The notes beneath the pieces were generated by a model. The model did not search any database. It saw nothing but the letters and a program-made list of their open reading frames with translations, and was not told the origin of the DNA. This document shows positions 4,055 through 9,884 of a stretch of DNA of 9,884 bases, one piece after another. Made by a program: the position numbers and the translations under genes. The stretch lies in the IMG/VR virus record IMGVR_UViG_2648501669_000003, positions 1-9,884 of that record, one strand, 5' to 3'. This DNA is from a virus. Its lineage: Duplodnaviria > Heunggongvirae > Uroviricota > Caudoviricetes. Within the stretch, counting starts at the first letter, position 1, and every line of letters starts with the position of its first letter.

Positions 4055-4210
4055 TTACTCCTCAGGTTCGTAAGCTGTGAAGACAGCGACCTCCGTCTGG
4101 CCGGTTCGGATTCGTACCTCACAGAGGTCTTTCCTCGTTACCAGTGCCGTCACTATGACGGTTAAACAGATGACAATCAGGGCGATTAACATCGCCTTTT
4201 GCTGCTTCAT
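4055..4210 (-). CDS. hokD: Hok/Gef family type I toxin (51 aa), matching HokD/RelF
   Basis: ATG at 4210 with AGGAG SD 9-13 nt upstream and TAA at 4055-4057. Product MKQQKAMLIALIVICLTVIVTALVTRKDLCEVRIRTGQTEVAVFTAYEPEE has the single TM helix and conserved Cys/Glu of Hok proteins and matches my recollection of E. coli HokD. Confidence 0.8.
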   Translation of the reverse strand: MKQQKAMLIALIVICLTVIVTALVTRKDLCEVRIRTGQTEVAVFTAYEPEE

Positions 4211-4267
4211 AGCCTGCTTCTCCTTGCCTTTCGGCACGTAAGAGGCTAACCTACATGTGTTCAGCAT
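4055..4267 (-). CDS. mok-like overlapping reading frame (translational coupling frame for hok)
   Basis: ATG at 4267 with GAGG about 9 nt upstream; the frame runs through and is co-terminal with hok, as in hok/mok loci. Whether it is translated is not determinable from sequence. Confidence 0.35.
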   Translation of the reverse strand: MLNTCRLASYVPKGKEKQAMKQQKAMLIALIVICLTVIVTALVTRKDLCEVRIRTGQTEVAVFTAYEPEE

Positions 4268-4367
4268 GGATTGGCCTCAGATTAATGTTAAGCGTCTTGC
4301 AGGACGCGTAATGTTAACTGGGGCTTTTCTCTATCTGCCTTTTGGTGTTCATGCCTGAGGCAGATAG

Positions 4368-4420
4368 CCTCAAGCACCCGCAGCAATTCTACTTAACTCT
4401 CCTTTTCCCGCAAACCGTTT
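4368..4420 (-). promoter_or_regulatory. Putative hok promoter and 5' end (tac-like element) of hok mRNA
   Basis: Minus-strand TAGAAT -10 candidate (plus 4386-4391) about 6 nt upstream of a GCGGGUGCUUGAGG element (plus 4368-4381) that is complementary to the 3' element at 3991-4005. The -35 is weak. Confidence 0.35.
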
Positions 4421-7871: not shown

Positions 7872-8263
7872 CCCATCACCTCCTGAAAGTTTCCCCGATA
7901 AAACGCCAGCACTCGCTGCATAACCTCACTCTTCCGGCACTCGCGACAGATTATGTTCTGGCTCCTGTCGTAGCGGCGTATCTCTCCGTCTGGTAACTTC
8001 CGAATCAGCGTCTGGTCAGTTGTTTTCTCCGGTGTCTTACGCCATTCACGATACGCCTGCTCTGATGCAAAAACACCGTATTCCCCGGACATGTATAAAT
8101 CACCACAAGCCAGTACATCCACAAGGCAGCGTCGGACCGAATGCCAGCCTGCTCCCGTCGCTCTCTCCAGTTGCGACATCGTCATGCGTCCATTTTTGCG
8201 TACCAATCCGATAATTCGTGCCTTCAGCTCTTCCCGCTGTTCGGGTGTAAAAGGTTTCGCCAT
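7868..8263 (-). CDS. Ren-like protein
   Basis: 131 aa with ATG at 8263 and GGAGGG SD. The C-terminal segment ICRECRKSEVMQRVLAFY resembles my recollection of lambda Ren (FKECRQSAAMKRVLAVY), and the gene sits immediately after the P-like gene, as ren does in lambda. Confidence 0.6.
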   Translation of the reverse strand: MAKPFTPEQREELKARIIGLVRKNGRMTMSQLERATGAGWHSVRRCLVDVLACGDLYMSGEYGVFASEQAYREWRKTPEKTTDQTLIRKLPDGEIRRYDRSQNIICRECRKSEVMQRVLAFYRGNFQEVMG

Positions 8264-8292
8264 AAACCCTCCCGGTAAAATTACTTATCAAC

Positions 8293-8958
8293 TCAAACAA
8301 AACCTGCCGCTTTCCTGCGTTCATATTCCTGTTTCAGCAACTCAATTGGCGTTGGTCCCGCAGGACGTATGGGTGCTGCCAGTTGCCTACGGACGGGTGG
8401 AACACTCAGTCCGTTACCAACATGCTTTGCCCATTTCGCCAGTTGCCGTTCTGCAAGCCGTTTTAACTCCCCTTCGGTCATCTGGCGCTCAATCCCCTTT
8501 GAACGCATCTCGAGACAAATGTGATACAGCACAGGCTGAGACCACGGGTATTTATCGCTTCCGTCGTATCGCCAGGACTCGTTGCGCCAGCGTCGGTACT
8601 CCTCCATCACGTTATCCACCGTCAGACCAAATGGATTTGCCCCGCTCTCCGAAATCAGCGCCACAAACTCAGCCAAGTCCGGAGGCCATGTTTCACCTGC
8701 CCTGCAACGGTCCATGCACTGGCGGCAGACCAGCCGGATTTGCTGCTCAGTCATCGCGCCAATCTGTGCAATCCAGAGCTTCGAAGGTGCGGCCCCGTTC
8801 TTCTGGGTCCAGCGGTTCGAATAAACCTCCCCCATGAGTTCCCACAGCTTCCACGCCGTTTCCGTCGCTGATAAATCCATTTTCACGTTCCCACTGCTCA
8901 CGTGCTGCCCGAATTTCCTGAACTGCCCGTGATGCGGTGCCACCTGGTGCGGCTGCAT
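8293..8958 (-). CDS. Replication protein P-like (DnaB helicase loader); start uncertain
   Basis: The C-terminal 150 aa align by eye to lambda P (PPDLAEFVAL ... YPWSQ ... ELKRLAERQ). ATG at 8958 has a GGGGGTGA SD but makes a 212-nt out-of-frame overlap with the O-like ORF. Alternative in-frame ATGs lie at 8880 and 8754; the latter overlaps the O-like stop by 8 nt. Confidence 0.7.
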   Translation of the reverse strand: MQPHQVAPHHGQFRKFGQHVSSGNVKMDLSATETAWKLWELMGEVYSNRWTQKNGAAPSKLWIAQIGAMTEQQIRLVCRQCMDRCRAGETWPPDLAEFVALISESGANPFGLTVDNVMEEYRRWRNESWRYDGSDKYPWSQPVLYHICLEMRSKGIERQMTEGELKRLAERQLAKWAKHVGNGLSVPPVRRQLAAPIRPAGPTPIELLKQEYERRKAAGFV

Positions 8959-9787
8959 GGCTCACCCCCTTGCTGACTGGTTTAACCTGCGCCCTGACGT
9001 GATTTACGTGACGGGCGAATTTCTGCTCCCACTGAACCTGCGTAAATACTTTCCCCTCCGCTGCCCAGTAGTCCCGGAAGGCGGCAAGTTCAGCAGGTGT
9101 AAATTCCGGCTCCGGCAAAGCCATCCCCCACACCGCAGCCCGTCGTCGAAAATCCCGTGACGGATGCCAGCTATCGGTCATCGGAAATTTTCCGATGGGT
9201 TCGCTCAGGCCATCCAGGAATACGGGTGGCACTGCCTGTAACGACAAAACTTCCTGCTCACTGGTCGGAGCACTCTCGCGTGCATTATGTGTGGGGTTTA
9301 GATCTTTGGGTTCCTTTGGGTTCCGTGATCCGTTTTTGGGTGTCTTTGATGGAAAATTTGGGTGTCTTTGGTTATTTTCCATGCAGCTAAGAGTTCCGTT
9401 TTTGGGGCTGTTTTGTGCTGAAACATAACCATTTTCGGTACTGTTTTTATTAACAGTACCAATTTTACCCACCTTTAAAGACTCCCGTTTTTGGGTGTAT
9501 TCAGGCTCGGCAACGCTTTCTTCTACACCGATAAGTCGGTACACTACGATTTGCTTTGTTCGGCCTTTTCTCTCACCGGTATCAACAATTAACCCAATCT
9601 CCATCAGGTGTCGTAAGCTGTCCTGCACAGTCTTTTTGTTCAGCTCCGTTACTTCTGCCAGTGCAGATACAGACGGGTATGCACACAAATCGGCACCGCA
9701 CATATCAGCAAGCCAGGTCAATACTGACTTACTGGATGAACTGCCGGTTTTCACCTTTTTAGCCCATCGTAGTGCATCGATACTCAT
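8747..9787 (-). CDS. Replication initiator (O-like): N-terminal wHTH DNA-binding domain fused to a DnaT-like C-terminal domain
   Basis: The ORF-track start at 9862 is a TTG, so the ATG at 9787 (MSIDALRWAKK, GGGG upstream) was used. The N-terminus looks like a winged HTH. The C-terminal segment GKFPMTDSWHPSRDFRRRAAVWGMALPEPEFTPAELAAFRDYWAAEGKVFTQVQWEQKFAR matches the C-terminal region of E. coli DnaT as I recall it. The central linker is low-complexity and encoded by the iterons. Confidence 0.75.
   Translation of the reverse strand: MSIDALRWAKKVKTGSSSSKSVLTWLADMCGADLCAYPSVSALAEVTELNKKTVQDSLRHLMEIGLIVDTGERKGRTKQIVVYRLIGVEESVAEPEYTQKRESLKVGKIGTVNKNSTENGYVSAQNSPKNGTLSCMENNQRHPNFPSKTPKNGSRNPKEPKDLNPTHNARESAPTSEQEVLSLQAVPPVFLDGLSEPIGKFPMTDSWHPSRDFRRRAAVWGMALPEPEFTPAELAAFRDYWAAEGKVFTQVQWEQKFARHVNHVRAQVKPVSKGVSHAAAPGGTASRAVQEIRAAREQWERENGFISDGNGVEAVGTHGGGLFEPLDPEERGRTFEALDCTDWRDD
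9304..9499. repeat. Iteron array (putative phage replication origin) embedded in the initiator gene
   Basis: Direct repeats: ctttgggttc twice in tandem (9304-9313, 9314-9323); ccgtttttggg at 9330-9340, 9396-9406 and 9485-9495; tttgggtgtctttg at 9335-9348 and 9357-9370. An AT-rich block follows at about 9410-9480. This is analogous to ori-lambda inside gene O. Confidence 0.6.
9437..9460. repeat. 9-bp inverted repeat with 6-bp spacer inside the AT-rich part of the putative origin
   Basis: ggtactgtt-tttatt-aacagtacc; a perfect palindrome in the AT-rich segment. Confidence 0.4.
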
Positions 9788-9884
9788 ACGAACCCCTGGC
9801 AGACATTTGTTTATCTGCAAAGTAATATTGGTATTGCTGACGATACGCACGCTTGAAAGCAATGGCTTTTTCTATAAGCTCGTC
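9759..9884 (-). CDS. Partial CDS: C-terminal about 41 codons of an upstream gene, truncated by the window edge
   Basis: Minus-strand frame open from the window edge to TAA at 9759-9761 (DELIEKAIAFKRAYRQQYQYYFADKQMSARGSYEYRCTTMG). It has more G-initial codons than the alternative TTG-extended O frame and overlaps the O-like start by 29 nt. Identity unknown. Confidence 0.3.
   Translation of the reverse strand, partial: DELIEKAIAFKRAYRQQYQYYFADKQMSARGSYEYRCTTMG

Follow-up and report, generated by a model that had tools for sequence, protein, structure and literature searches.

The window, which is the whole stretch of 9,884 nucleotides analyzed here, carries on its minus strand a replication initiator gene and, downstream of it, a P-like helicase-loader gene (Table 1); the initiator gene occupies the canonical early-right position. 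The initiator open reading frame stays open beyond the ATG, up to a TTG at 9862, and its product matched PHROG 1032 ('replication initiation protein') with E=1e-89. Three parts are distinguished in this gene: a winged-helix N-domain (HTH_36-like), a disordered linker encoded by a repeat array, and a DnaT-like C-domain. PGAP labels the identical gene only 'DnaT-like ssDNA-binding domain-containing protein' and annotates no origin there.

Table 1. Features of the initiator and loader genes in the window.
Feature	Position	Strand	Sequence	Remarks
P-like helicase-loader gene	8293-8958	minus		Pfam Phage_lambda_P (PF06992), 60.7 bits, E=2e-16
Replication initiator gene	8747-9787	minus		ATG at 9787, 346 aa; ORF list
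DnaT-like ssDNA-binding domain segment	8987-9187	minus		aa 201-267; Pfam PF17948, 62.8 bits, E=2.6e-17
Predicted disordered linker segment	9263-9514	minus		aa 92-175; AlphaFold2 pLDDT <50
Module junction	9287-9305	minus	AGATCTAAACCCCACACAT	end of N-domain and iteron cassette
Two half-site-like copies	9305-9321	minus	AACCCAAAG	TTTGGGT matches
Iteron 6	9322-9348	minus	CAAAGACACCCAAAAACGGATCACGGA	PWM 24.4 bits; translates TPKNGS
Iteron 5, variant	9344-9370	minus	CAAAGACACCCAAATTTTCCATCAAAG	intact left half, replaced right half; translates RHPNFPS
Iteron 4	9388-9414	minus	AAAACAGCCCCAAAAACGGAACTCTTA	PWM 32.6 bits; translates SPKNGT
AT-richest stretch of the gene	9420-9479			27-30% GC, inside the array; candidate unwinding region
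Iteron 3	9421-9447	minus	AAAACAGTACCGAAAATGGTTATGTTT (also given as TACCGAAAATGG)	PWM 24.1 bits
Perfect 9-bp inverted repeat	9437-9460		GGTACTGTT (9437-9445) / AACAGTACC (9452-9460)	6-nt spacer; repeat search
Iteron 2, decayed	9451-9477	minus	TAAAGGTGGGTAAAATTGGTACTGTTA	PWM 2.3 bits; right arm retained, CC core gone
Iteron 1	9477-9503	minus	TGAATACACCCAAAAACGGGAGTCTTT	PWM 32.9 bits; translates YTQKRES
Winged helix-turn-helix DNA-binding domain segment (predicted)	9515-9787	minus		aa 1-91; AlphaFold2

The initiator and loader genes

An AlphaFold2 model of the initiator, run with database proteins, has given pLDDT values of 83-95 across aa 1-91, with the topology H-H-H-H-beta hairpin. Comparison of this N-domain by Foldseek and with PDB profiles retrieved generic winged-helix regulators and plasmid Rep N-domains at E values of about 2e-3 to 3e-2, including weak structural matches to the staphylococcal plasmid Rep N-domains 4pql, 4pt7 and 5kbj. 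Against Pfam HTH_36 (PF13730) the window protein scored 20.8 bits, below the gathering cut-off of 25 bits, while relatives that align full-length scored 30-49 bits, above the cut-off. The PF17948 assignment of the C-domain exceeds its gathering cut-off (25 bits).

The initial annotation had placed the repeat array in an O-like gene. The array does lie inside the minus-strand open reading frame, but homology of its product to lambda O was rejected, since a Pfam scan of the initiator gave no PF04492 (Phage_rep_O) match at E<=0.01 (lambda O itself reaches 123 bits), BLASTP against lambda O gave no alignment, and hhalign of the N-domain family against lambda O returned a probability of 6%. Only weak matches to PHROG 'O-like' families were found (E 1e-5 to 1e-10). 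By these sequence and profile comparisons, the initiator is a member of another family than lambda O.

The gene directly downstream passes the PF06992 cut-off of 26 bits and matched PHROG 109 (E=7e-62, from residue 20 of the open reading frame), with a colinear BLASTP alignment to lambda P (E=9e-7). Its annotated start is at 8754; the open reading frame and the family homology reach approximately 8958, overlapping the initiator 3' end. Megablast identity to ydaU/ydaV of Rac-SA53 (92.7%) and to phage pPE4 (94%) was confined to 8700-9280. Rac-SA53 resembles the window in the DnaT-like C-half and the downstream P-like gene (92.7% identical in DNA) and in the location of the replication module after dicA/dicC/ydaT-like genes. 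It differs in that YdaU has a DUF1376 N-domain and a linker devoid of CC-RAAAAC-GG iterons, the exchange point (the module junction in Table 1) being located right after the array of the window.

Repeat unit and composition of the array

The heptamer TTTGGGK has seven matches in the window, six of them at 9305, 9315, 9335, 9357, 9401 and 9490, against an expectation of about 0.06 per 192-bp span (Poisson P of about 8e-11 per span, or about 1e-8 allowing for about 100 spans). The at least six copies with this core described initially are thus present and non-random, but the heptamer covers no more than the core of the actual unit, a partly dyad-symmetric iteron of 24-27 bp with the consensus AA(C)N4CC-RAAAAC-GGN4(G)TT on the sense (minus) strand. 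As the relatives show conserved flanks, the heptamer was dropped as repeat unit in favor of a 27-nt position weight matrix (PWM) for which only relatives from other genera, and not the window, were used. This matrix found four strong copies in the window (24-33 bits), all on the sense strand in 9322-9503, compared with a mean maximum of 4.3 bits in shuffled windows. The reverse strand of iteron 3 scored 12.4 bits because of the dyad symmetry. Every iteron match falls inside the predicted disordered linker.

The earlier list of copies has been corrected accordingly: the strong iteron 3 had been missed, the match at 9357 belongs to a variant half-iteron, and those at 9305 and 9315 are not conserved. 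At the positions of these last two, relatives L004-L007 read CTACCAAGG/ACCATAAAG, therefore the motif is not conserved there, and the two AACCCAAAG copies are probably not functional iterons. The decayed iteron 2 is the positional homologue of the second iteron of the relatives (gene offset 318). The variant iteron 5, with a PWM score below 0 bits, was identified by direct reading of the sequence, and a variant element at its position is kept in relatives (CACCCAATTTTGG in Edwardsiella, TACCGTTTTTCC in Scandinavium/Enterobacter). Iteron 6, the last one, was found in all close relatives, and iteron 4 carries a CGG>CAG change in the PPompW relatives. The spacings in the window are irregular (26, 30, 33, 44 and 22 bp). 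Promoter and terminator scans of 8700-9884 gave nothing above chance, the one 'terminator-like' match being iteron 4.

The repeats had also been said to encode a linker with recurrent PKNG/NPKEPK motifs. The linker is indeed encoded by them, and CCCAAAAACGG on the minus strand translates P-K-N-G twice (SPKNG and TPKNG), but the six TTTGGGK cores occupy three codon phases (TQKR, PKNG, HPNF, NPK and EPK) and do not all yield PKNG.

An AT-rich block containing a perfect 9-bp palindrome had been described as following the array. Both exist, but they are located between iteron 1 and the rest of the array, as a decayed and a strong iteron. In the composition profile, 9420-9479 is the GC minimum of 8700-9884, and just 0.6% of the 60-bp windows within the whole stretch have a lower GC content; this minimum lies between iterons 1 and 4, and the sequence past the last iteron is not AT-rich. 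Among 110 relatives, the GC minimum of the gene is in the linker in 80%, at a varying position, and a separate AT-rich unwinding tract flanking the last iteron was found neither in the window nor at a conserved position in these relatives. The palindrome is composed of the outer arms of two adjacent iterons, iteron 2 contributing its right arm and iteron 3 its left arm. Its homologue GGAACTGTTAATACTAACAGTGCC is present in relatives L004, L005 and L007, and it is disrupted (GGTGCTGTT) in PPompW prophages that are 97% identical. The AT-rich block plus palindrome was consequently rejected as a separate lambda-like element, since its counterparts in the relatives are iterons 2 and 3, it is broken in the 97%-identical relative and it has no fixed position.

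Conservation of the repeats and association with the N-domain

The repeats are conserved at the DNA level, are associated exclusively with the N-domain and are unique in the prophage genome. Because most entries retrieved by a protein search with the N-domain were truncated or frameshifted, scans of loci were used in its place, on a comparison set of 110 distinct homologous loci of 3-5 kb each. All the 475 matches of at least 15 bits had the sense orientation and fell within gene nt 240-620, right after the winged-helix segment, and none was found elsewhere in the 3-5 kb of the 110 loci. In a complete 44-kb PPompW prophage, matches of at least 10 bits were restricted to 8171-8352, which is the iteron array. 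The copy number among the relatives ranges from 1 to 7 and changes by whole units.

Codon analysis has revealed that the iteron core is translated in all three frames, with 134, 53 and 9 distinct sites. Among P[KE]NG peptides picked without the PWM (69 distinct ones), proline was encoded by CCC in 68 cases (6% background), lysine by AAA in 38 of 38 (49% background), glutamate by GAA in 31 of 31 (52% background) and asparagine by AAC in 67 of 69 (59% background). Iteron 1 agrees with the first iteron in relatives at 20-25 of 27 nt (74-93%), compared with identities of only 65-71% for the HTH-coding DNA and 38-46% for its third positions. The motif is shared by Enterobacterales and Burkholderiales relatives, and the HTH-coding third positions are near saturation in the enterobacterial relatives compared. 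Judged from these frame and codon patterns, the constraint on the repeats is at the DNA level and not at the peptide level. The earlier description of dual-use DNA is supported by the multi-frame reading and the constraint on synonymous sites: the array is embedded in, and encodes, the linker of the initiator.

The motif accompanies the N-domain across genera and is found with DnaT-like, Phg_2220_C and unclassified C-termini alike. The coupling of the array is to the N-domain and not to the C-domain, because the motif is present with each of these C-termini and absent from Rac-SA53 YdaU. Where the N-domains are 33-43% identical, different repeats occupy the same place, such as four copies of CCCCGCAGAATCTGC with a 22-bp period in frames 2, 0, 1 and 2, or TGACACC...GTGTCA dyads in another example. 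The distinct initiator/repeat specificity pair suggested initially is supported by this pattern, in which the motif appears to follow the N-domain and to be replaced where that domain is more divergent. The iterons, described initially as different in sequence from those of lambda, read ACACCC-AAAAAC-GGGAGT in the window and TCCCTC-AAAAC-GAGGGA in lambda.

The array as a candidate replication origin

The array at 9322-9503 is probably the set of initiator-binding sites (iterons) of a lambdoid prophage origin located inside the initiator's own gene, a reading to which a probability of roughly 0.7 is assigned. From the sequence we infer binding, unwinding and origin activity of the array. The winged-helix N-domain (aa 1-91) would bind each dyad of about 24 bp, probably as a dimer, and several bound iterons, in one orientation and centered on A-tracts, would form an O-some-like complex in which the DNA is wrapped or bent. 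This complex would destabilize the AT-rich center of the array (9420-9479), and the host DnaB would be recruited jointly by the DnaT-like C-domain and the P-like product of the next gene. As the sites coincide with a part of the protein for which a flexible tether is enough, the iteron DNA could double as code for the disordered linker (aa 92-175). Counting against the origin reading are the N-domain score under the HTH_36 cut-off and, unlike lambda, the lack of a conserved AT-rich element beside the array. Two of the six iteron positions in the window are decayed or variant and the 97%-identical PPompW prophages are altered in the otherwise invariant CGG; therefore, the origin of this particular prophage may be weakened.

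Iterons in plasmids and in Vibrio chromosome II reportedly have roles in both initiation and control. Such dual roles are one reason to consider that the sites bound by the N-domain might serve in autoregulation, copy control or exclusion (titration/handcuffing), with the true origin elsewhere, e.g. upstream of the gene beyond the window. That the window ends at 9884, with the gene start at 9787, and that no conserved unwinding element flanks the array would also agree with this. However, the complete PPompW prophage has no second motif cluster and the 3-5 kb of the relatives score nowhere outside the linker, and this explanation is considered quite unlikely. Moreover, intragenic iterons are the origin in every characterized lambdoid case (PMC8022706, PMC7466680).

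A selected secondary structure, i.e. hairpins in mRNA or single-stranded DNA, in one version a primosome-assembly-like site for the DnaT-like C-domain, was also weighed and appears very improbable. Compared with shuffled sequences, 9300-9510 folds better on the sense strand (z = -2.55 as DNA, -3.9 as RNA), mostly through the 9-11 bp palindrome hairpin, and the protein has an ssDNA-binding DnaT-like domain, but the palindrome is broken in the 97%-identical relatives. In addition, the array goes with the N-domain, Rac-SA53 YdaU having the same DnaT half without it. Across 221 distinct sites, complementarity between the arms equals the expectation from column composition at all pairs but 7-22; therefore, there is no compensatory covariation beyond this one pair, the dyad symmetry belongs to the consensus itself, and selection for a hairpin or cruciform was rejected. 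The Rfam scan of the region gave no RNA family. Least probable of all is that the repeats are a peptide-level feature of a low-complexity linker (PKNG-type) or a neutral product of slippage, with the DNA similarity as a by-product. The segment does encode a predicted disordered linker of biased composition, the copy number is variable and many database entries are frameshifted within it. Nevertheless, one DNA core is read in three frames as unrelated peptides, synonymous positions are fixed far past codon usage, and the motif spans both bacterial orders despite the near-saturated HTH third positions of enterobacterial relatives, so this explanation seems largely refuted already.

Dual-use iterons inside the coding region of the initiator have been documented for lambda and Stx phages, in which extra iterons lengthen the initiator protein (PMC7466680), and P22 and L have their own distinct iterons within this region (PMC8022706). 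The ori-lambda arrangement proposed in the initial annotation holds for the dyad-containing direct repeats placed in the initiator gene after the DNA-binding segment, but not for the AT-rich tract, which lies within the array instead of flanking it. Like the window, lambda and the Stx phages 933W and P27 (six-iteron origins) have direct repeats of about 18-27 bp within the initiator gene, and these repeats encode a flexible part of the protein (PMC7466680). The first iteron of lambda begins at codon 117, just past the Phage_rep_O match (aa 22-115), and that of the window begins at codon 95, after a winged helix that extends to aa 91. In both, the iterons are partial dyads centered on an A-tract and the gene for a P-type helicase loader comes next after the initiator. 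Unlike lambda, the initiator of the window has no detectable lambda O sequence homology and a DnaT-like C-half, its longer repeat unit carries conserved AA/TT patches on the outer sides, and the spacing is 22-44 bp and irregular, compared with 20-24 bp in lambda.

Gene 18 of P22 and L offers a similar case of distantly related or unrelated origin-binding initiators, each with its own repeats in the coding region; in phage L, six imprecise repeats of TGTCCAACGGA were found by sequence inspection and proposed as the origin (PMC8022706). These phages differ from the window in initiator and repeat sequences and in the partner, a DnaB-type helicase (gene 12) instead of a lambda-P-type loader. Iteron plasmids with a winged-helix Rep also have a direct-repeat array (its binding being presumed in the window), a variable copy number and a lineage-specific repeat type, but plasmid iterons are normally intergenic, with DnaA boxes and a flanking unwinding element, whereas the array of the window is entirely coding. 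Very probably, the array represents the replication origin of the phage, the arrangement being an ordinary lambda-style one within a different initiator family. The literature search found no paper that mentions the iteron motif, the motif strings matching unrelated primers only, and neither iterons nor DnaT are mentioned in a paper on non-lambdoid Stx replication regions.

A more speculative and rather doubtful extension of the origin reading is an origin without flanking unwinding element, in which the central iterons of the array (9420-9479), AT-rich and partly decayed, would be the place where melting begins and an interchangeable C-domain would capture the opened strand. The winged helix and the array would then constitute a portable 'origin-specificity cassette' recombining at the fixed junction 9287-9305 with alternative helicase-recruitment modules, and the C-domains, DnaT-like here and Phg_2220_C or others in relatives, may be interchangeable.

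The iteron consensus provides a concrete, testable candidate origin for prophages with this module and would allow a simple typing of prophage replication specificity or incompatibility. The concept itself, already established for lambda, P22 and L, is unchanged; the array is a clean example of a putative protein-binding DNA function that overrides codon choice and reading frame. The replication module is common. Its N-domain and array were found at 95% identity or more in 908 of the 5426 complete E. coli genomes, the carriers including O157:H7 and PPompW prophages adjoining Stx2a phages, and relatives occur in Klebsiella/Kluyvera, Enterobacter, Edwardsiella, Serratia, Plesiomonas and Pandoraea.

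The iteron array and its repeat unit

The minus-strand winged-helix/DnaT-type initiator gene carries a genuine and strongly conserved iteron array that is most likely the origin of a prophage (probability of about 0.7); binding to the iterons and origin activity of the array are inferred. The window contains seven matches to TTTGGGK, six of them clustered at 9305, 9315, 9335, 9357, 9401 and 9490, against an expectation of 3.25 per window and about 0.06 per 192-bp span (P ~8e-11 per span, ~1e-8 over all spans). A repeat search of the window has also revealed longer families, such as CCGTTTTTGGG..., in 3-4 copies, and the GC minimum of the region lies at 9420-9479 (27-30% GC). The raw observation of the initial annotation, at least six TTTGGGK copies, is therefore real, but its description needed revising: the true unit is a longer element, described by a 27-nt matrix, and the copies at 9305 and 9315, which relatives do not conserve, are probably not functional iterons.

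Scans of genome and viral collections provided 127 homologous loci (110 distinct) from Scandinavium, Enterobacter, Kluyvera/Klebsiella-like, Plesiomonas, Edwardsiella, Serratia and Pandoraea/Burkholderia-like prophages. The 27-nt weight matrix (consensus GAAACACACCCAAAAACGGGACTGTTA) was built solely from loci L002 and L004-L012. When the window was scanned, four minus-strand matches were found and nowhere else was comparable; the mean maximum in shuffled windows was 4.3 bits. Copy number in relatives ranges from 1 to 7. Positions A3 A4, C10 C11, A13-A15, C17 G18 G19 and T25 T26 are invariant over 221 distinct sites, which defines the dyad AA(C)N4CC-RAAAAC-GGN4(G)TT. The 9-bp palindrome consists of the right arm of iteron 2 adjoining the left arm of iteron 3, and is built likewise in L004, L005 and L007 (GGAACTGTTAATACTAACAGTGCC). 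The 97%-identical PPompW prophages (L001/L211, changes at 8260-8286 and 8200-8225) show the palindrome disrupted by A>G and, in iteron 4, CGG>CAG at an otherwise invariant position, changes that could reflect a decaying origin in partly defective prophages.

Features of the initiator region and of the hok/sok module in the window
Feature	Position	Strand	Details
Initiator ORF	8747-9862	minus	346 aa from ATG at 9787; contains 9304-9499
Iteron 1	9477-9503	minus	matrix 32.9 bits
Iteron 2	9451-9477	minus	decayed copy; sub-threshold, 2.3 bits
Perfect 9-bp inverted repeat GGTACTGTT/AACAGTACC	9437-9445/9452-9460		repeat search
Iteron 3	9421-9447	minus	matrix 24.1 bits
Iteron 4	9388-9414	minus	matrix 32.6 bits
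Iteron 5	9344-9370	minus	variant, left half intact; sub-threshold
Iteron 6	9322-9348	minus	matrix 24.4 bits
Mosaic junction AGATCTAAACCCCACACAT	9287-9305		directly after array; sharp break in homology to Rac-SA53
Hok/Gef ORF	4055-4267	minus	Pfam E=3e-23
sok	4205-4379	minus	Rfam match, 118.6 bits

Selection on DNA, peptide or secondary structure

The iterons had been described as encoding a PKNG/NPKEPK linker. PKNG, NPK and EPK are indeed read, but the six TTTGGGK cores fall in three codon phases and the others give TQKR and HPNF; family-wide, distinct iterons occur in frames 0/1/2 in numbers of 134/53/9. A codon analysis independent of the matrix, covering every one of the 69 distinct linker peptides of the type P[KE]NG, revealed CCC for Pro in 68/69 (6% elsewhere in the same genes), AAA for Lys in 38/38 (49%), GAA for Glu in 31/31 (52%) and AAC for Asn in 67/69 (59%). 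In comparisons of the window with relatives, iteron 1 retains 74-93% identity, compared to 65-71% for the HTH-coding DNA of the same relatives and only 38-46% for its third positions. These comparisons indicate that selection on the iterons is directed to DNA rather than peptide. Many database proteins of the initiator family (P0004, P0006, P0008, P0002) terminate within the linker after a frameshift; frameshift mutations or sequencing errors seem to arise easily in the iteron A-runs.

Maintained base pairing was considered as a less likely selected feature. For 9300-9510, the sense strand has a more stable predicted fold than shuffled sequences (z = -2.55 as DNA, -3.9 as RNA), with the palindrome as the main contributor. 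However, complementarity between arms across sites was that expected from column composition, except for the pair 7-22 (0.41 vs 0.26). The symmetry is therefore a property of the consensus rather than maintained base pairing, and such a dyad would be as expected of a dimeric protein site. No Rfam family was matched.

Association of the array with the initiator N-domain

All 475 matrix matches of at least 15 bits fall between gene nt 240 and 620, in the sense orientation, and none was found elsewhere in the 3-5 kb of the 110 loci. The array is also the sole place scoring at least 10 bits in the complete 44-kb PPompW prophage. The motif goes with the N-domain irrespective of the C-terminus, which may be DnaT-like, Phg_2220_C or unclassified. 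Edwardsiella phage EPP-1, 58.5% identical to the first 163 residues of the query, has the differing Phg_2220_C C-terminus and 5-6 copies of the same DNA motif in its linker, whereas YdaU of prophage Rac-SA53, whose C-terminal half and P-like gene share 92.7% DNA identity with the window, lacks such iterons and has DUF1376 as its N-domain. Downstream of the mosaic junction, Rac-SA53 ydaU/ydaV and phage vB_Apl-pPE4 match the DNA of the DnaT half and P at 92.7-94% identity; upstream of it, the DNA shows no relation to either. N-domains at 33-43% identity have different repeats in the same location. In a distant HTH_36 initiator (L120, 1770-1850), four exact 15-mers CCCCGCAGAATCTGC, 22 bp apart, are read in frames 2, 0, 1 and 2 as TPAESA/PRRICT/PPQNLR/SPAESA, a very clean case of a single DNA repeat translated in three frames, also seen in L121-L125 and L127; L126 has TGACACC...GTGTCA dyads at the iteron location.

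The gene had been called O-like, which holds for its position and not for its ancestry. It is placed in the initiator slot because of its PHROGs assignment (phrog_1032 'replication initiation protein', E=1e-89; 'O-like' families matched weakly), a confident AlphaFold2 winged helix-turn-helix at aa 1-91 (pLDDT 83-95), a lambda-P-type helicase loader as the next gene and the early-right context. Pfam detected a DnaT DNA-binding domain at aa 201-267 (62.8 bits), whereas HTH_36 scored below threshold (20.8 bits) and Phage_rep_O was not matched; BLASTP found no match to lambda O, and the N-domain family profile aligned to it with a probability of only 6%. Structural and profile searches with the N-domain pointed to generic winged-helix DNA-binding proteins and to the N-domains of plasmid Rep proteins, and aa 92-175 are modelled as a disordered tail (pLDDT <50). 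The gene works like O without O homology.

The proposed ori-lambda arrangement is retained in array logic and iteron design (CCC-type arm, A-tract, GGG-type arm). The annotated lambda origin has four 18-bp iterons from codon 117 of O, directly past Phage_rep_O (aa 22-115), with an AT-rich tract flanking them on their far side (PMC7466680). In contrast, the present unit is longer, spacing is irregular (26, 30, 33, 44 and 22 bp) and the AT-rich part with the palindrome is internal to the array and not fixed in position in relatives. Since lambda, P22 and L carry distinct iterons within each initiator coding region (Casjens and colleagues, PMC8022706) and additional iterons lengthen O by residues in Stx phages (PMC7466680), the dual-use principle was already established. 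A literature search found no paper mentioning the motif. The array has annotation value rather than being a conceptual surprise, because, of 5426 complete E. coli genomes, 908 carry the N-domain and array (9290-9790) at ≥95% identity, with as many as four copies in one genome and three occurrences on plasmids; the gene is annotated solely as 'DnaT-like ssDNA-binding domain-containing protein'.

Surrounding prophage region

Beyond the initiator and loader genes, the window is occupied by a lambdoid early-right/nin region with every gene on the minus strand: DUF977, DUF4406, hok/sok, DUF968, RusA, a Q-like antiterminator and a DNA methylase. An E. coli chromosome with 100% identity places the initiator gene downstream of dicA/dicC-like regulators and a YdaT-family gene. 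The hok/sok toxin-antisense module (4055-4379, minus strand) is complete. The palindromic AAAAAACCCGCAAAAAGCGGGCTCTTT (1529-1555) lies in the gap that separates the Q-like antiterminator gene (1629-2195) from the next ORF. Its minus strand shows a GC stem with a T-run after it, and it matches the iteron matrix weakly (6.9 bits); it may be a late-operon terminator, and was not among the predictions of a terminator scan of 1150-1700. The P-like ORF (8293-8958, minus strand) overlaps the 3' end of the initiator gene by 212 nt (8747-8958) in a different frame. Public annotations start P with MTEQQ at 8754 (153 aa); however, the PHROG 109 alignment begins at ORF residue 20, Pfam P at residue 59, and lambda P is colinear (ORF residue 86 corresponding to lambda 94). 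P therefore probably starts within the initiator gene, which would make for a long overlap out of frame.
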